Assembly: GCA_026392115.1 (NCBI GenBank)
Contig: JAPLCQ010000035.1
Location: 2,914 to 66,913 of the forward strand
Direction of reading: 5' to 3'
Length of the DNA: 64,000 bases
Source: Armatimonadota bacterium
Lineage (GTDB): Bacteria > Armatimonadota > Chthonomonadetes > Chthonomonadales > CAJBBX01
In this document: piece after piece, positions 2,036-27,492 of the stretch
Position numbering within the stretch: the first letter of the stretch is position 1
How the letters are laid out: each line of letters starts with the position of its first letter
The notes under the pieces: model-generated
What the model saw: the letters and a program-made list of their open reading frames with translations, nothing else
Told to the model about the DNA's origin: nothing
Databases searched by the model: none
Program-made: the position numbers and the translations under genes

Positions 2036-2375
2036 CCGGCAGAGGGTTGGGTGGCCGCTCCGGCTTCGGCTGGAGAGGAAAGTCCGGGCTCCACAGGGCA
2101 CGATGCCGGATAACGTCCGGGCGGGGCGACCCGACGGAAAGTGGCACAGAAATGACACAGCCGCTTCGGCGGCAACGGTGAAATGGTGCGGTAAGAGCGC
2201 ACCGGCGGCCGGGAGACCGGTCGGCCTGCCAAACCCCATTGGGAGCAAGGCTCGACAGGAGGGGGTGATGCTGCCCGCTGACCCTCCGGGTGAGCCGCTT
2301 GAGGCCGCGAGCAATCGCGCGTCCCAGACAGATGGCCACACAAAGACAGAACCCGGCTTATAGACCCTCTGCCAC
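2036..2375 (+). ncRNA. rnpB: RNase P RNA, bacterial type A
   Basis: Contains GAGGAAAGTCCGGGCTCCACAGGGCA, GGATAACGTCCGGG, GAAAGTGGCACAGAAA and ACAGAACCCGGCTTA. P1 pairing is GGCAGAGGGT (2038-2047) with ACCCTCTGCC (2364-2373). Confidence 0.9.
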
Positions 2376-2399
2376 TATCGCCTGCCGCGCGCGGGCCGT

Positions 2400-13641: not shown

Positions 13642-13851
13642 ATGGCATCGCAGACGTACACCTGCCCGGCCATCCACTGCGAGGGCTGTGCGGGTTCCAT
13701 CAGCCGCTCGCTGGGCAAGCTGCGCGGCGTGACTGCCGTGGAGGTGACCGTGTCGACGAAGGCCGTCACCGTGCAGTATGACGAGGCCGCCACCGACGGT
13801 GCGGCCATCACCGCACGGCTTGAGGCGGCGGGATTCCCGGCGGAACCGTGA
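13642..13851 (+). CDS. Heavy-metal-associated (HMA) domain protein, CopZ-like
   Basis: 69 aa with a CxxC motif (HCEGCAGSI) and a beta-alpha-beta-beta-alpha-beta pattern. Confidence 0.75.
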   Translation: MASQTYTCPAIHCEGCAGSISRSLGKLRGVTAVEVTVSTKAVTVQYDEAATDGAAITARLEAAGFPAEP

Positions 13852-14780
13852 TGGCAGCCGGCATCGTGCCGCCGCGCCTGCGCCACGGCGACACCATCGC
13901 GGTCGTGTCGCCCTCCAGCGCGGTCCGGACCAGGCGCTTCGCCGCGGGCGTCCGCGCCATCGAGGCCAGAGGGTACCGCGTGCGCGTCTATCCGCACGCC
14001 CACGACTGTCTCGGGTACCTTGCCGGCGATGATGAGGCCCGCGCCCGCGACCTGCAGGCGGCGCTCACCGATCCGGGCATCGCCATGGTCCTCTGCAGCA
14101 GGGGCGGCTACGGCGCGTGCCGCCTTCTCGACCGCATCGACTGGGAGGCGGTGGCCGCCGCACCGCGCCTCTTCTCGGGGTACAGCGACATCACCTCGCT
14201 TCACCTCGCCTTCGCCGCGCGGACCCGCGTGCCGACGCTCCACGGCCTCATGGCCGCGAGCCTGGGGGACAAGCTCGCTCCTGAGCCGCTTGCCTGCTTC
14301 TGGGCCATGGTGGAGGGCTTCGAGCCGCCCTACCTCATGCCGTCGGCTGGGGCGGCCGTGCGCACGGTGACGCCCGGGGTAGCCGAGGGTCGGCTGGCTG
14401 GAGGCTGCATCACGATCCTCACGGCGGCGCTGGGGTGCTGGGAGGCGCCCGACCTGACCGGCAAGATGGTCATTCTGGAGGATGTCGGCGAGCCGGTCTA
14501 CCGCATGGACCGTTACGTCACGCAACTCATCCGCGGCGCCGGACTGGGACGCGCCGCGGGTATCGTCATCGGCAACGCCACGGGCTGGCAGCGGCTCTCG
14601 CGGAAAGGCCCCACGCTGGACGAACTATGGGACGAGATCATAGCGCCGTTGGGGGTCCCTGCCGTGGCGGGCTTCCCAATGGGCCACGAGCCGCAGCCGC
14701 TCACCTTCCCGCTCGGCTGCATGGCGCGGCTCGACGCCTGTGCGGGCACGCTTACGCTGCTGGAGTCGCCCGTTTCGTGA
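13848..14780 (+). CDS. ldcA: LD-carboxypeptidase (peptidase S66)
   Basis: Contains IAVVSPSS, YLAGDDEARARDL, RGGYGA and the nucleophile motif GYSDITSLH. The start is either GTG 13848 or ATG 13851; both overlap the upstream stop. Confidence 0.8.
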   Translation: MMAAGIVPPRLRHGDTIAVVSPSSAVRTRRFAAGVRAIEARGYRVRVYPHAHDCLGYLAGDDEARARDLQAALTDPGIAMVLCSRGGYGACRLLDRIDWEAVAAAPRLFSGYSDITSLHLAFAARTRVPTLHGLMAASLGDKLAPEPLACFWAMVEGFEPPYLMPSAGAAVRTVTPGVAEGRLAGGCITILTAALGCWEAPDLTGKMVILEDVGEPVYRMDRYVTQLIRGAGLGRAAGIVIGNATGWQRLSRKGPTLDELWDEIIAPLGVPAVAGFPMGHEPQPLTFPLGCMARLDACAGTLTLLESPVS

Positions 14781-16188
14781 TCCGGCCTTCCGCCAGGCCG
14801 AACGCCCAGGGGAGGGCGCCTGCCACCAGCCCGGGGTACATGGGCTGGATGCCGAAGGGGAAGATGGAGCTATCGGCGACGTCGGCGCCCGCGCCCTTCG
14901 CCGCCCATCCCACAGCCAGGCAGGCCGCCGACGTGAGCGAGCCACAGAGCATGGATGCCACCGCCCAGCGAGGCGGCAGGGCATCGATGCGCCAGTAGGC
15001 CGTCAGCAGCGAGAATGACATCCCCGGCACGAAGACCGTGCCGATGGCCCACCATTGCCGGACGACCGACGGAAGCCAGAGGCTGATCGCAATCGCCACG
15101 CCGCACGTCGCGATAAAGCCCAGGCGGGCATAGCCGGGGACGTTCTCCGTGGAGGTCTCGCCGCGGGCGCGCCAGATCATGTCGCGCCCCACCGTCATGG
15201 CGCCCAGGAACGTGTACGACACTACCGTGGACATGACTGTGGCCAGCATCGCCACGTAGAAGAGCCCCCGCACCCCTCCCGGCAGGAGGCGCTGGGCCAG
15301 CATGGGGAACGCGAGCCCCGCACCCTTGTCGCCCAGGTCCGGCATGGCGGCGCGGGCGTAGAGGCCTGTCATCGTCGTGAGCGTGTCAAAGAGCAGCCAG
15401 CATCCCACGGCCGCCAGCACGCCCCACTTGGCCACTCCCGGCGACCGGGCGGCGTAGCAGCGCTGGTGGAAGCCGGGGTCGATGAGCGTCCAAAGCGCGA
15501 TACAGAACCAGACGGCGATGTAGCCCGCGCCCAGCCCGCCGTCCAGCGACAGGTGCCCCGGAGGCAGCGTGCGGCTCAGCCAGGGCAGGTCGCCCGTGCG
15601 CGCCATGAGTACGGGCAGCGCCACGCCGAAGCCGAGGAACATCAGGCAGAACTGGTAGATGTTGATCCGGACGTCGGACTGAAAGCCGCCCACGTAGACG
15701 TAGCACGTCGATGCTATGGTGCCGGCCAGCACGGCCCATACCAGCGGCATGCCCGTGGCCACCGTGATGAGCTGCCCCACCATGAGGATGTAGGGTGCCG
15801 GCGTGGACATGAAGAACGTGAAGACCGAGCCCACCAGCGCCGCGGGCCTCCCGTAGGCCTCGTTCAGCTTGTCTGGGATGGTGTAGTGCGCCGCTTTGCG
15901 CACGCGGGCAGCAAGCACGAGCCCGAAGACGATGGCGAAGAGGTAGTAGGGCAGCCCCTGCGTGGTCCAGTTCACCAGGCCGTACCGATAGGTGAACTCG
16001 CCCACGCCGAGGATGCCGCCGTACCAGGTAGCCACCAGCGTGGCGACGAAGACGGGCAAGCCCAGTGCGCGGTCACCGATGAGGAACTGCTCGGCGGTCT
16101 GTCGCCGCCTCCAGAACCCCACGGCCAGCGTGAAGACCATGTAGGCCGCGAGGATGGCGATGTCGGCCGGCTCGAACCGCGCCCTCAT
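14752..16188 (-). CDS. Sodium:solute symporter family transporter (candidate thiamine/precursor importer, ThiV-like)
   Basis: The ATG at 16188 overlaps the thiN stop (ATGA). It has 12-13 TM helices and an SSS-type N-terminus (FLIGDRALGLPVFVATLVATWYGG). It is the last gene of the TPP-riboswitch operon. Confidence 0.85.
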   Translation of the reverse strand: MRARFEPADIAILAAYMVFTLAVGFWRRRQTAEQFLIGDRALGLPVFVATLVATWYGGILGVGEFTYRYGLVNWTTQGLPYYLFAIVFGLVLAARVRKAAHYTIPDKLNEAYGRPAALVGSVFTFFMSTPAPYILMVGQLITVATGMPLVWAVLAGTIASTCYVYVGGFQSDVRINIYQFCLMFLGFGVALPVLMARTGDLPWLSRTLPPGHLSLDGGLGAGYIAVWFCIALWTLIDPGFHQRCYAARSPGVAKWGVLAAVGCWLLFDTLTTMTGLYARAAMPDLGDKGAGLAFPMLAQRLLPGGVRGLFYVAMLATVMSTVVSYTFLGAMTVGRDMIWRARGETSTENVPGYARLGFIATCGVAIAISLWLPSVVRQWWAIGTVFVPGMSFSLLTAYWRIDALPPRWAVASMLCGSLTSAACLAVGWAAKGAGADVADSSIFPFGIQPMYPGLVAGALPWAFGLAEGRITKRATPAA

Positions 16189-16838
16189 ATCTGTGGCCCG
16201 TCGACTGCGAAGTGCGTCACCAGCACGACGCCCTGCTCCACCGTGACTTCGGCCGCGGCTTCGGTCATCACGTTGCTCACGCCGCGCGAGCCCGGCAACA
16301 GCGTCTCGGCTTGCAGCGGCCACTGCACGCCTCTCAGGCCCACGCCCCGGGCAGGCGCCATGGCCGTCAGCGAGAGCCGGTCGCCGGGCGATCCGGACAC
16401 CGTCATGCGGCTTGAGCAAGCCCGGGTGACCGAGCCGCCGCTCACCACGCGCAGGTCGGCCTCCAGGTGGAGCGCGAGTAGGATCGAGACGGTTGTGATG
16501 GTGTGGTCGAACCTACGACCGGTGGCCCCCACGACCGTGATGGCTGTGGCGCCCCGCGCCAGGCACCAGCGAACCGCCTTCTCCAGATCGCACGCCTCCT
16601 GGTCGGGGGTGGGTTCCACGGCGCCCTCCGGCAGCGACGCGAGCGCATCCGGCGACGCCGAGTCCATGTCGCCCAGGACGCGGTCGGGCGCCTGGCCCAT
16701 CCGGAGCATCCAGTCCGCGGCCCCATCCGTGGCGATGCAGAGGTCGTGGGCCGCACGCAGCCGCGCCAGGGAGGCGTCCGATGGCGGCTCGCCGTTGGCG
16801 CAGATGAGGACGCGGGCGGCCGTGCAAGACCGGCTCAC
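16185..16838 (-). CDS. thiN: Thiamine pyrophosphokinase
   Basis: Contains ICANGE, ATDGAA, GDMDS, PDQEACDLEKA and a C-terminal thiamine-binding beta domain. The GTG start lies 1 nt after the upstream stop. Confidence 0.85.
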   Translation of the reverse strand: MSRSCTAARVLICANGEPPSDASLARLRAAHDLCIATDGAADWMLRMGQAPDRVLGDMDSASPDALASLPEGAVEPTPDQEACDLEKAVRWCLARGATAITVVGATGRRFDHTITTVSILLALHLEADLRVVSGGSVTRACSSRMTVSGSPGDRLSLTAMAPARGVGLRGVQWPLQAETLLPGSRGVSNVMTEAAAEVTVEQGVVLVTHFAVDGPQI

Positions 16839-16839
16839 G

Positions 16840-17580
16840 CTAGTCGCAGCCCCAGTAGTACATCGATCCTGTTGCGGGGTTGATGTCGCCGCTCCGTCCG
16901 CCCGATGCGCAGACGACCTGCTGGTCGAAGGCGCCGGCGCTGACGGTGAACTTGGCGTGGCCGTCGATGAAGATCGCCGAGCCTCCCCGAGGGTGCCACT
17001 GCCGGTAGTAGTCCGGCGAGTAGCCGTAGCGCGGGTCGGTGAAGAAGGCCATCATGTCGTCCCGCATCATGCGCGTCTCGGCCGGCGCGACGAAGGAGGC
17101 GTCGGCCACAAGGTCGCTGCCGGCGTAGGGCTCATTGTTCTGGCTCGACTCGCCGGCCACGGTGCTGAAGCTGCCGTGGCAGAACCGGTAGCTGGACCCG
17201 TAGCATGCGTGGTAGGAGGCCAGTCCGGGGCAGCCGTAGGTGGCGTCGGCCACGGCGGGCCCGCCTGCGTCGTCCGGGCACCGGAAGATCTGACGGTTCC
17301 TGCCGTATGGGAGGATGAGCTCTTCCACGCCCTTGTGGCCGGGCCTGCCGGACGCCGGGTTGCTGTTGTAGGCGTAGAAGATGGGCATCGTCTCGTCGTA
17401 GTCCTGCACGTACATCCGCACCTGCAGTCCCACCTGCCGGCTGTTGGAGGTGCAACTGGTCTCCCGGGCGTTCTCGCGCGCCTGGGCGAAGACGGGGAAG
17501 AGGATCGCCGCCAGGATCGCGATGATCGCGATGACGACGAGAAACTCGATGAGCGTGAATGCGTTCGGCTTGTGTGACAT
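16840..17580 (-). CDS. Prepilin-type N-terminal cleavage/methylation domain protein with a C-terminal H-X9-DG motif (pseudopilin-like, DUF1559-type)
   Basis: GAGGAGG precedes the ATG at 17580. The leader is MSHKPNA-FTLIEFLVVIAIIAILAAILFPVF, and the C-terminal motif is WHPRGGSAIFIDGH (H-X9-DG). Confidence 0.85.
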   Translation of the reverse strand: MSHKPNAFTLIEFLVVIAIIAILAAILFPVFAQARENARETSCTSNSRQVGLQVRMYVQDYDETMPIFYAYNSNPASGRPGHKGVEELILPYGRNRQIFRCPDDAGGPAVADATYGCPGLASYHACYGSSYRFCHGSFSTVAGESSQNNEPYAGSDLVADASFVAPAETRMMRDDMMAFFTDPRYGYSPDYYRQWHPRGGSAIFIDGHAKFTVSAGAFDQQVVCASGGRSGDINPATGSMYYWGCD

Positions 17581-17634
17581 TCCTTGTGCCTCCTCAGGAA
17601 GAGGCGGGTCCTCTGTTGGTCGTCGGACGCATGG

Positions 17635-17685
17635 CGCAAGAAAGGCACCGCGCACCGGCAACCTCCCGGAAAAGCGCGGCGCCTT
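17635..17685 (-). terminator. Terminator-type expression platform of the TPP riboswitch
   Basis: In the RNA, AAGGCGCCGCGC (17685-17674) pairs with GCGCGGUGCCUU (17653-17642), giving 12 bp with one G-U. An inner CCGG/CCGG helix is present, followed by UCUUGC. Confidence 0.55.
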
Positions 17686-17697
17686 CCGACGCCTCAG

Positions 17698-17795
17698 TAT
17701 CGCTTCCCTCCGTCGGGATTACCCGCATCAGGTTCCAGGAGTTCCTCGTTTGGCACGAGGTCTCAGCCGGCCCATACCGGCACCCCCAGCGTTCA
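17698..17795 (-). promoter_or_regulatory. TPP riboswitch (THI element)
   Basis: The minus strand reads CGCUGGGGGUGCC GGUAUGGGCC GGCUGAGA CCUCGUGCCAAACGAGG AACUCCUGGA ACCUGAUGCGGGUAAUCCCGACG GAGGGAAGCG. All conserved THI-box blocks are present, with P1 CGCU/AGCG. Confidence 0.9.
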
Positions 17796-17836
17796 TTCAG
17801 TTGTCGACCCGGCAACTCAGCGACCGGACTTACGAC

Positions 17837-18163
17837 CTACTCTACCAGACGCTGCAGCTTCTCGGCAATGGCTTTCTTCGGCAGCGCGCCGACGATCTGG
17901 TCGACCATCTTTCCGTCTTTGAAGAAGAGCAGCGTGGGGATGGACATGATGCCGTACTTGCCCGCCACCTCTCCCTCGGTGTCCACGTCGACCTTGAAGA
18001 CCTTCGCCTTGCCCTCGAACTCGGCGGCGACGGCGTCGACGTGCGGCGCGATCTGGCGGCACGGCCCACACCAGGTGGCCCAGAAGTCGACAAGGACGGG
18101 AACGGTGGACTGCAGGACTTCGGTCTCGAAGTCGGCGGACGTGACGGCTTTGGCGGCGCTCAT
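17837..18163 (-). CDS. trxA: Thioredoxin
   Basis: 108 aa with the WCGPC active site. Confidence 0.95.
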   Translation of the reverse strand: MSAAKAVTSADFETEVLQSTVPVLVDFWATWCGPCRQIAPHVDAVAAEFEGKAKVFKVDVDTEGEVAGKYGIMSIPTLLFFKDGKMVDQIVGALPKKAIAEKLQRLVE

Positions 18164-18204
18164 GCAAGTACTCTCCTTAGATGGTCTGCCCTCGTTTCCG
18201 AGGG

Positions 18205-18234
18205 GTTATACGCTAACGGCTCCCGAGGAGTCAA
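18205..18234 (-). promoter_or_regulatory. Candidate promoter of trxA
   Basis: TTGACT (18234-18229), an 18-nt spacer, then TATAAC (18210-18205). Confidence 0.5.
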
Positions 18235-18248
18235 CCGGAACCGGTCAC

Positions 18249-19439
18249 TCAGGCGACCAAACCCATGCTTCGGCCGACGCGGCCCATGGTCTGCAGGGCC
18301 TCATCGAGCTCCTCGAGGCTGTGCGAGGCGTTGGGCATGGTTCGGATGCGGGCCCTGCCCCGCGGCACGGTGGGGAAGACCACGGCCAACGCCAGCACTC
18401 CCTCGGCCATCAGCCTGCGCTGTAGCTCAAGGGCCTTCGCCTCGCTGCCGGTCATGATGGGCGTGATCGGGGTCTCCGTGACGCCGATGTCGAAGCCCAT
18501 GGCCTTCAGGCCGCCCTGCCAGTGCCGCGTATTCGCCCAGAGCCGCTCGGTGAAGCTCGGGTCGGTCTCCATCAGGTCCAGCGCGGCTAAGATGGCTCCC
18601 GCCACGGCCGGCGGGTGGGCCGTGCTGAAGAGGAATGGCCGCGCGCGCTGCACGAGCCAGTCCCGGAGGAGCGCGCGGCCGGCGATGTAGCCGCCCATGA
18701 CCCCAACCGCCTTCGAGAGCGTGCCCAGCTGCACATCGACGCGCTGGTGGACGCCGAAGTGGTAGGCGGTGCCGCGACCGCCGCCCAACACGCCGGAGCC
18801 GTGGGCATCGTCCACCATCACGGCCGCGTCGTAGCGCTCGGCAAGCTCCACGATGTCGGGCAGGGGCGCCACGTCGCCGTCCATGCTGAAGACGCCGTCG
18901 GTGATGATGAGCCGCTTCTCGGAGGCCTTGCAGCGCTGCAAGGCCTCCTCCAGCGAGTTCATGTCGCGATGCTTGTAGACGGGCCGTTGGTCGGACGGCA
19001 ATCCTGCGAGGCGGCATCCGTCGATTATGCTGGCGTGGTTCAGTTCGTCCGAGATGATGGCATCGGCCTTGGTGATGATCGTGGGGATTGTGCCCGCGTT
19101 GGCCGTGAAGCCGGACTGGAACACGATGGCCGCCTCCACGTGCTTGAATGCCGCGATTCGGCGCTCCAGCTCCTGGTGAATCTCCATGGTTCCGATGATG
19201 GTCCGCACAGCGCCCGCGCCGGCCCCCCAACGCTCCACCGCCTCGATGGCGGCCTGCTTCAGCTTCGGGTGGTTGGCCAGGCCAAGGTAGGTGTTGGAGG
19301 CCAGGTTGATGACCCGGCGTCCCTCCACCGTGATGCTGCCGCCCTGCGGGGATTGGACCTCCACCAGCGGCTTGTACAGGTGCTGCTCGTGCAGCGCGTC
19401 CAGCTGATTGCCCAGCCAGTCGCCAAGCGTCTTGTTCAC
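18249..19439 (-). CDS. kbl: Glycine C-acetyltransferase / 2-amino-3-ketobutyrate CoA ligase (alpha-oxoamine synthase family)
   Basis: Contains NTYLGLANHP, TIIGTMEIHQELE, DDAHGSG and the PLP lysine in GTLSKAVG. The GTG start has GAGGAG 7 nt upstream. Confidence 0.85.
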   Translation of the reverse strand: MNKTLGDWLGNQLDALHEQHLYKPLVEVQSPQGGSITVEGRRVINLASNTYLGLANHPKLKQAAIEAVERWGAGAGAVRTIIGTMEIHQELERRIAAFKHVEAAIVFQSGFTANAGTIPTIITKADAIISDELNHASIIDGCRLAGLPSDQRPVYKHRDMNSLEEALQRCKASEKRLIITDGVFSMDGDVAPLPDIVELAERYDAAVMVDDAHGSGVLGGGRGTAYHFGVHQRVDVQLGTLSKAVGVMGGYIAGRALLRDWLVQRARPFLFSTAHPPAVAGAILAALDLMETDPSFTERLWANTRHWQGGLKAMGFDIGVTETPITPIMTGSEAKALELQRRLMAEGVLALAVVFPTVPRGRARIRTMPNASHSLEELDEALQTMGRVGRSMGLVA

Positions 19440-27417: not shown

Positions 27418-27492
27418 TGGCTCCCCGTGGTAGATTCGAACTACCAACATTTCGGTTAACAGCCGAACGCTCTGCCATTGAGCTAACGGGGA
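27418..27492 (-). tRNA. tRNA-Asn (anticodon GTT), CCA encoded
   Basis: Cloverleaf folded by hand: acceptor TCCCCGT/ACGGGGA, D arm GCTC-AATGGCA-GAGC, anticodon arm TTCGG-CTGTTAA-CCGAA, T arm GGTAG-TTCGAAT-CTACC, discriminator G, then CCA. Confidence 0.95.

Follow-up and report, generated by a model that had tools for sequence, protein, structure and literature searches.

A 64,000-nucleotide stretch of DNA (the window) from an Armatimonadota bacterium carries, on its minus strand, a thiamine pyrophosphate (TPP) riboswitch followed by three genes, which encode a prepilin-type protein with an H-X9-DG motif (P0001), a thiamine pyrophosphokinase (TPK, P0002) and a sodium:solute symporter (SSS, P0003) (Table 1). 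Across Armatimonadota the pilin-like gene invariably comes first behind the TPP riboswitch and is often monocistronic, and in the host a second paralog of the same family (P0154) stands behind a cobalamin riboswitch. The riboswitch, the TPK and the SSS are ordinary parts; the novelty lies in a pilin-like protein being the core target of two vitamin riboswitches. We consider it probable, on balance, that the locus is the thiamine-acquisition operon of the host, which TPP turns off, and that the pilin-like protein is a component of thiamine capture or uptake.

The aptamer matches the full Rfam TPP model RF00059 (model positions 1-105) with 68.3 bits (gathering score 54.3, E 2.7e-11), and a scan of the whole host genome found this TPP aptamer only. 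It lies on the same strand as the operon, TPK and SSS included, 107 nt upstream. A GAGGAGG sequence (17595-17589) precedes the ATG of the pilin-like gene at 17580, and the TAG stop of this gene (16842-16840) is separated by one base from the GTG of the TPK gene at 16838, while the TPK and SSS genes overlap in an ATGA (16188-16185). P0002 matches TIGR01378 with 122.8 bits (cut-off 76.4), and both its catalytic domain (PF04263, 80.6 bits) and its B1-binding domain (PF04265, 32.4 bits) were recognised. P0003 belongs to the SSS family (PF00474, 70 bits, cut-off 22.8) and scores below the cut-off of the superfamily model TIGR00813 (81.6 bits, cut-off 184). It is probably a thiamine importer, an assignment based on its context, namely (i) the riboswitch; (ii) the adjoining TPK gene; and (iii) the auxotrophy of the host. 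Orthologs of P0003 adjoin TPK or the pilin-like gene in many Armatimonadota. A preliminary description of the window had read a THI element on the minus strand, the Shine-Dalgarno sequence and ATG of a 246-residue protein with a pilin-like leader (matched here by PF07963) and a C-terminal H-X9-DG signature, the one-nucleotide gap to TPK and the overlap with the SSS gene; this reading of the locus is supported on each of these points.

The link between riboswitch and pilin-like gene is conserved. A TPP aptamer is present in 38 of 40 relatives from three families of the order (39 of 41 genomes when the host is counted). In 25 of the 30 relative loci that were fetched, the first gene after the aptamer is a full-length P0001 ortholog (47-78% identity), usually followed by TPK and once directly by SSS. 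Eleven further relatives show the same adjacency by coordinate comparison, so that it holds in 36 of the 40; the four exceptions are two genomes that have neither aptamer nor ortholog, and two in which a ThiC-like gene follows the aptamer. In 401 Armatimonadota genomes, a search with a profile built from 24 orthologs (E<=1e-50) found the TPP-linked subfamily in 159, nearly always in single copy, and the 150 matches listed all score at least 290 bits. By family, the subfamily is present in 45 of 47 genomes of Fimbriimonadaceae (f11), 23 of 23 of f14, 6 of 6 of f27, 12 of 18 of f16 and 17 of 29 of f29. When 40 ortholog loci of eight distant families (f6, f11, f13, f14, f16, f27, f29 and f35) were sampled, 39 had an upstream TPP aptamer on the same strand at gathering score, which together with the relatives amounts to riboswitch-pilin adjacency in 76 genomes, host included. 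The linkage that the preliminary description had proposed to survey in related genomes is therefore borne out by both samples.

The sole examined distant ortholog locus without an upstream TPP aptamer (L150; G391:C71:92977-93639) is found in a genome with two matches, and its gene may be a second, unregulated copy. Some f14 and f16 genomes carry two tandem pilin-like copies behind one aptamer (L115 in G137; G064:C3:37313-38769; G077:C264:3548-5071).

As judged by sequence scores, the TPP-linked pilin-like proteins form a discrete subfamily, which is set apart by gaps in bit score. In an exhaustive search of 1.84 billion representatives about 16 clusters reached at least 218 bits, the rest forming a continuum near 150 bits, and the superfamily as a whole comprised 320,818 representatives at E<=0.001. 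Within the host genome, where about 48 genes are paralogs of the pilin-like protein, the best paralog of P0001 scores 118 bits and the paralogs in general about 100 bits. A scan of named genomes with the ortholog alignment was discarded; its patterns fell in the generic pilin N-terminus and it returned almost only paralogs.

The distant loci also indicate which gene the riboswitch serves. The pilin-like gene is always first in the 39 loci, while the genes behind it differ: TPK-SSS, only one of these two, a second copy in tandem, or no related gene. In 15 of the 39 the neighbour that follows is on the opposite strand, and a Pfam check of eight of these showed that the opposite-strand open reading frames (ORFs) are all real, unrelated genes (encoding UPP synthase, epimerases, a GNAT acetyltransferase, FlhB, a MetH-like protein, a GGDEF protein and an erythromycin esterase). 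Of these eight genes, six are immediate neighbours of the pilin-like gene, and for two (L140 and L148) a smaller uncalled ORF intervenes. The MetH-like gene (L120:2920-4998, in G198 of Fimbriimonadaceae) is convergent and encodes homocysteine S-methyltransferase and pterin-binding domains; its adjacency is probably coincidental.

Fimbriimonadaceae bear on the same question. Of 41 genomes of this family, one was found to have ThiC, all 41 have TPK and 27 have the SSS ortholog; the SSS gene is usually found beside TPK, hundreds of kilobases from the pilin-like gene. No Rfam hit was found upstream of any of 20 stand-alone TPK(-SSS) loci in this family (0/20). This arrangement implies that the pilin-like protein is not tied to one inner-membrane transporter.

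The second line of evidence is the paralog P0154. Its gene lies directly downstream of the only cobalamin riboswitch of the host (RF00174, 47.5 bits, cut-off 31.5) and is monocistronic, the next genes being ScpB/ScpA-like and on the opposite strand. The H-X9-DG motif of P0154 is HLGMANTLFCDG, and PF07596 matches with 44.5 bits over positions 2-43. Orthologs (55-98% identity) occur in 34 of the 40 relatives, with a same-strand cobalamin aptamer directly upstream in 31 of the 34; outside the order an aptamer of the cobalamin clan precedes 17 of 18 orthologs, and the subfamily was found in 60 of the 401 Armatimonadota genomes. P0001 and P0154 are alike over residues 4-112 only (53% identity), the remaining part of the head being unrelated. 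No Rfam element was found at E<=0.01 in the 650 nt upstream of 40 other host paralogs, which implies that riboswitch control is confined to two subfamilies, one for each vitamin. That both of the host's vitamin riboswitches front an H-X9-DG paralog, when about 48 of its genes belong to the family, exceeds what chance would give. In one relative, three cobalamin aptamers are present within 9 kb (G015:C18:68771-77954), one of which precedes a further H-X9-DG paralog (C18:76958-77527).

P0001 has the N-terminus of a prepilin. Its leader, MSHKPNA, is followed by FTLIEFLVVIAIIAILAAILFPVF, and the mature part would start with FTLIEFLVV, which fits signal peptides of class III; the region matches PF07963 (N_methyl; 31.2 bits, cut-off 21.2) and TIGR02532 (28.6 bits, cut-off 16.3). 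Residue E12, the E+5 of pilins, is invariant in 122 family sequences, and D206, G207 and H208 are invariant or nearly so in the same 122 family members. The last three lie within residues 195-208, which carry the H-X9-DG signature (WHPRGGSAIFIDGH; H196-X9-D206-G207). A scan of NCBIfam at E<=0.01 returned prepilin/pseudopilin N-terminal models and no H-X9-DG domain model, so that the signature rests on direct reading of the motif. The match to PF07596 (DUF1559/SBP_bac_10) is marginal and N-terminal only (24.0 bits, gathering score 23.3, profile positions 2-38 of 268). The NCBIfam equivalogs are far under their cut-offs (GspG, 25 versus 88.85 bits; ComGC, 35.8 versus 75 bits), with matches confined to the N-terminal ~55 residues.

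The AlphaFold2 model of P0001, built on the 122-sequence alignment, has a mean predicted local distance difference test (pLDDT) of 96.4 and a predicted TM-score (pTM) of 0.88, and replaces an earlier run on 24 sequences (pLDDT 67.8). It shows a single pilin-type domain, which consists of a helix (residues 10-60) and, at the C-terminus, a sheet to which the H-X9-DG strands belong. The top 17 VIA-align matches of the model are all pilins or pseudopilins (best Z 5.4, 122 residues aligned), among them PilA4 (Z 5.4), EpsG (4.9), a type IVb pilin (4.7), the DNA-receptor pilin ComP (4.4) and PulG (3.9); the Z values are modest because the head of P0001 is enlarged. According to the model, the fold is the type IV pilin fold with an enlarged, subfamily-specific head. 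A Foldseek search of the model against the PDB gave no match at E<=0.001, while the neighbours in the ESM Atlas are DUF1559 clusters (TM 0.65-0.67). A feature search of the ESM Atlas with the head alone gave a best score of 0.81, under the level of a lead, and a profile search of PDB sequences matched the N-terminal pilin helix only, the head being covered by no solved structure. The name SBP_bac_10 had been considered as an indication of a solute-binding fold; this was set aside, as pilins only and no periplasmic-binding-protein chain appeared among the Foldseek and VIA-align matches, an absence from the match list that does not rule out a periplasmic-binding-protein fold for P0001.

The residues conserved in the TPP-linked subfamily only are Y71, H82, E86, P108, Y123, Y127, F133, S145, N148, R170, R173, E175, M176, F180, Y187, W195, G200, F218 and G227, a set rich in aromatic and charged side chains. 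Such a composition is of the kind seen in thiamine-binding pockets. The 24-ortholog alignment also contains six conserved cysteines (three pairs), which suggest disulfides and hence indicate an extracytoplasmic location.

The genome of the host (order Chthonomonadales; 5.7 Mb, 98.6% complete) fits a thiamine importer. ThiC, ThiE and ThiG were not detected in it, while controls did detect them; with TPK present, the host should depend on imported intact thiamine. The operon is the only recognisable thiamine system of the host under TPP control. The genome encodes one prepilin peptidase (Peptidase_A24), seven secretins (on contigs C24, C46, C68, C156 and C178) and at least five PilB/GspE (T2SSE) ATPases. 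It has a single TonB-dependent receptor (C144:22393-24132), and the genome scans found no TPP or cobalamin riboswitch near this receptor gene. For a 5.7-Mb bacterium that has an outer membrane, this balance of seven secretins and at least five ATPases against one TonB-dependent receptor is unusual.

The leader of the operon contains a terminator-like hairpin, the core stem of which is formed by GGAAGGCGCCGCGC and GCGCGGUGCCUUUC (-43 kcal/mol when folded alone), and a consensus scan placed terminator-like sites at 17660-17644. The off-switch-type terminator of the preliminary description is thereby recovered, with the qualification that its U-tract is short and pairable. Folding of the nascent leader showed a possible pairing between the P1 3' strand (GGGAAGCG) and the loop-side GCGCUUUUCC of the terminator, and in the same alternative fold GGCGUC pairs with GGCGCC in the terminator 5' arm; when P1 is closed, the terminator hairpin forms. 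The pairing of the P1 3' strand with the 5' half of the terminator is a plausible candidate antiterminator. A small hairpin that includes the Shine-Dalgarno sequence, separate from the terminator-like one (-10.5 kcal/mol alone), can, in the folding models, occlude the ribosome-binding region of the pilin-like gene. Among 64 orthologous leaders, 47 have a stable hairpin with a U-rich tail, many of which resemble clean canonical terminators. Leaders of 33-78 nt, mostly from Fimbriimonadaceae, have no terminator hairpin and probably act on translation. For all leaders the mechanism of the switch was deduced from the thermodynamics of folding. The sequencing runs that contain the stretch are freshwater and lake DNA metagenomes, with no RNA run among those listed.

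Table 1. Positions of the riboswitches, leader hairpins and genes discussed in the text (window coordinates unless a host contig is named).
Feature	Position	Strand	Basis
TPP riboswitch aptamer (THI element), full length	17688..17797	-	RF00059 match
Expression-platform hairpin, terminator-like	17633..17693	-	core stem 17687-17640, then UUCUUGCG
Small hairpin CCUCUUC/GAGGAGG including the Shine-Dalgarno sequence	17588..17605	-	minimum free energy and centroid leader structures
Prepilin-type H-X9-DG pilin-like protein P0001, 246 aa	16840..17580	-	translation; Pfam; AlphaFold2; TPP-linked orthologs
Thiamine pyrophosphokinase (TPK) P0002, 217 aa	16185..16838	-	TIGR01378, PF04263, PF04265
Sodium:solute symporter (SSS) P0003, 478 aa	14752..16188	-	PF00474; next to TPK
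Cobalamin riboswitch and paralog P0154 (250 aa)	host contig C122:802-1837 (aptamer 802-925, gene 1085-1837)		RF00174

The operon is closed by an LD-carboxypeptidase gene (Peptidase_S66; 13848-14780, plus strand), which converges on the SSS gene with a 29-nt 3' overlap. Elsewhere in the window, a class A RNase P RNA (2039-2376, plus strand, 275 bits) and a tRNA gene (27421-27492, minus strand) are both ordinary.

The best-supported reading of these data is that the two subfamilies would be ligand-specific components of vitamin capture or uptake built on a pilin scaffold. A riboswitch names the metabolite that its gene serves, which makes thiamine and cobalamin specific ligand hypotheses for the two subfamilies. 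We propose that at low TPP the P1 3' strand would pair into the 5' half of the terminator, so that transcription reads through. The pilin-like protein would then be anchored to the inner membrane through its hydrophobic helix, or one of the type IV filament machines of the host would incorporate it into a short pseudopilus. Binding of thiamine, or of one of its vitamers, by the enlarged, subfamily-specific head, in the periplasm or on the cell surface, would concentrate the vitamin or draw it through the envelope, possibly via a secretin, for an inner-membrane importer. In the host this importer would be the SSS protein, and TPK would convert the imported thiamine directly to TPP. The pilin-like protein would in this way fill the role that riboswitch-controlled TonB-dependent receptors, surface vitamin-binding lipoproteins or solute-binding proteins have elsewhere. 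A prediction of a complex between the head domain and the SSS transporter scored 0.00 (mark 0.32) and gives no answer.

Four other explanations were weighed against a role in capture or uptake. The pilin-like protein could be an envelope enzyme, anchored through its pilin helix, that makes external vitamers transportable, for instance by dephosphorylation of thiamine monophosphate (TMP) or TPP or by freeing bound or degraded forms, with an analogous function of the B12-linked paralog on corrinoids. The family-wide invariant D60, D62, D206 and H208 could bind a metal, and a catalytic or phosphate-binding role could fall to the subfamily-specific H82, E86, R170, R173 and E175; free thiamine is what the SSS and TPK require, and riboswitch control suits any step of thiamine salvage. 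However, the searches of P0001 matched no enzyme family or fold, and the scaffold is a pilin fold, which to our knowledge is not a catalytic fold. With ~48 paralogs per genome and over 300,000 cluster representatives, whose heads vary, the family resembles a recognition repertoire more than an enzyme family. We regard enzymatic function as rather unlikely, though as an alternative to be taken seriously.

Alternatively, the pilin-like protein could be released or displayed as a scavenger (a 'vitaminophore') by export of the type II secretion kind, capture thiamine outside the outer membrane and be returned with it. The seven secretins and several PilB/GspE ATPases of the host would suit such a route; a single TonB-dependent receptor implies that some other passage for vitamins through the outer membrane is needed, especially for the bulky B12, and a head stabilised by disulfides outside the cytoplasm is suggested by the three conserved pairs of cysteines. 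A hydrophobic N-terminal helix that is invariant and has E+5 is, however, a hallmark of subunits embedded in a membrane or filament and not of secreted cargo, and no re-uptake receptor is evident in the examined loci, which together make a scavenger unlikely.

A third explanation dispenses with ligand specificity altogether: P0001 would be a structural or priming pseudopilin of a filament that is raised under vitamin scarcity, for adhesion to vitamin producers or for motility. The pilin fold and pilin-type leader agree with it, and type IV filaments are multifunctional (PMC6668835). It does not account for two vitamin riboswitches in front of two subfamilies with heads that are unrelated beyond residue ~112, nor for the conservation of the subfamilies across families at 47-78% identity while generic paralogs have no riboswitch, nor for the co-localisation of the gene with TPK and SSS in many genomes; we find it quite unlikely. 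That the pilin-like gene is a passenger of a riboswitch that serves TPK and SSS, two bona fide thiamine genes with which it is co-transcribed here, is extremely improbable, since comparative data contradict it: the adjacency extends to 76 genomes, the pilin-like gene is alone behind the aptamer with an opposite-strand neighbour in 15 of the 39 distant loci, and in Fimbriimonadaceae, thiamine auxotrophs as a family, the riboswitch was found before the pilin-like gene and not before the TPK-SSS pairs located elsewhere, which excludes this explanation.

Several observations weigh against the role in vitamin capture, or against the regulatory mechanism, that we propose. No fold or motif known to bind thiamine or cobalamin is matched by the head of P0001, the searches by fold and by sequence returning the pilin scaffold only. 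The SSS ortholog is missing from 14 of the 41 Fimbriimonadaceae genomes, so that there is no fixed transporter partner. The U-tract of the terminator is short (UUUCUU), partly pairable and can be absorbed into an extended stem, and many orthologous leaders are too short for a terminator, which means that the mode of regulation varies. A promoter scan found no sigma-70-like promoter in 14000-18600, and the stop of a thioredoxin gene lies only ~40 nt upstream of the aptamer (gap 17798-17837); a promoter that overlaps the thioredoxin gene at its 3' end is possible, as is read-through into the leader. Finally, a pilin-like first gene was found in none of the 30 Verrucomicrobiota and none of the 29 Planctomycetota top-scoring TPP loci, a sample that leaves room for rarer cases.

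These loci were the 30 best from 150 Verrucomicrobiota genomes and the 29 with downstream sequence from 100 Planctomycetota genomes. The preliminary description had hinted at a link of this kind in genomes of the Planctomycetota-Verrucomicrobiota-Chlamydiota (PVC) type; this found no support in the loci examined, and the link appears, as far as the sampled groups show, to be confined to Armatimonadota. In Verrucomicrobiota the first genes behind TPP aptamers resemble ThiC or TonB-dependent receptors by their N-termini, and three that were tested (L202, L206 and L212) encode TonB-dependent receptors with Pfam Plug and barrel domains, which are candidate outer-membrane thiamine importers of this phylum. 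In Planctomycetota the first genes appear to be mostly ThiC, as confirmed in two of two tested. The pilin-like gene occupies the position in the regulon that is held elsewhere by outer-membrane receptors. The TPP-controlled ThiC proteins of Planctomycetota (L230, L243 and similar) have a conserved N-terminal extension of ~60-120 residues (e.g. ...GTNPGSFANPPQIGGP...FSSPDTPGMP) before the radical-SAM domain.

Comparison to known systems shows which features of the locus have precedents. In SAR11, thiV under a TPP riboswitch is the sole route of vitamin B1 acquisition of an auxotroph (PMC11452348). TPP-controlled ThiV operons are similar to the locus described here in having a THI element before a sodium:solute symporter and in feedback repression by TPP. 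SAR11 ThiV imports the precursor hydroxymethylpyrimidine (HMP), whereas here intact thiamine must be the substrate, because the host has TPK and is without ThiC, ThiE and ThiG. We found no known thiamine regulon with a pilin-like first gene in the literature.

In Bacteroides, TPP riboswitches regulate thiamine transport (10.1101/867226). Similarly to the pilin-like gene, TonB-dependent thiamine and B12 receptors and the surface B12 lipoproteins of Bacteroides are encoded by first riboswitch-controlled envelope genes; the difference is that a pilin fold takes the place of a beta-barrel or lipoprotein.

One parallel to the proposed function is archaeal. The Sulfolobus bindosome consists of sugar-binding proteins with class III pilin-type signal peptides, which are assembled by Bas and work with membrane transporters (PMC3047682). 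The likeness lies in a pilin-type signal peptide and in a nutrient-binding role and an assembly resembling type IV filaments, both of which are predicted in our case. In our reading the two subfamilies would be bacterial analogues of the bindosome and of the pilins that bind cargo in DNA-uptake machines. In contrast to the bindosome, the whole of P0001 has a pilin fold, and its partner is a secondary transporter or none in particular. The binding domains of the bindosome are classical ABC-type solute-binding proteins, of which only the signal peptide is pilin-derived, and we know of no riboswitch control of this system.

Neisseria ComP, ComGC and GspG/EpsG/PulG share with P0001 the fold class and the N-terminal FTLIE with E+5, and the host has the machinery. 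Binding of cargo by a pilin head, followed by passage through a secretin, is established for DNA; the cargo proposed here is a small molecule. P0001 differs further from this class by a head of about twice the usual size and by a gene that lies behind a vitamin riboswitch and not in a pilus or type II secretion system cluster.

The DUF1559/H-X9-DG superfamily (Planctomycetota, Verrucomicrobiota, Armatimonadota and others) has in common with P0001 the N_methyl region, the DUF1559 N-terminus, the H-X9-DG motif and the many paralogs. Planctopirus limnophila has 68 DUF1559 paralogs, two of which are essential, and the function of the family was given as unknown (PMC10632474, 2023). Within this superfamily the two riboswitch-controlled subfamilies are the first that we found with a specific regulatory link to a metabolite. 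The literature in open full text, subscription papers being outside the scope of the search, gives nothing on a vitamin riboswitch linked to DUF1559, H-X9-DG, prepilin or pseudopilin proteins, and public records name these pilin-like proteins generically only; both agree with the remark in the preliminary description that a pilin-like first riboswitch gene was undescribed. The pilin-like gene as invariant target, the cobalamin-linked subfamily and the type IV pilin fold go beyond that description.

In Planctomycetota, Verrucomicrobiota and Armatimonadota, the DUF1559/H-X9-DG proteins rank with the largest paralog families, and the riboswitch link gives a handle on their function. Tentatively, we extend the proposal to the superfamily as a whole, which might constitute a general nutrient-recognition repertoire with one substrate per variable head, carried by type IV filament machines and secretins and largely replacing TonB-dependent receptors. 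Were this doubtful but possible extension true, the thiamine- and cobalamin-linked subfamilies would be the first members of the repertoire with nameable ligands, and the superfamily, which in Armatimonadota and PVC bacteria has dozens of paralogs in each genome, would correspond in bacteria to the archaeal bindosome or form an 'uptake pseudopilus'. A confirmed role of the two subfamilies in vitamin capture or uptake would extend the known functions of the type IV pilin scaffold to the acquisition of small-molecule nutrients. It could explain how bacteria that have an outer membrane and almost no TonB-dependent receptors take up bulky vitamins such as B12, and it would allow vitamin auxotrophy and cross-feeding to be predicted better in the freshwater and soil communities to which these organisms belong.

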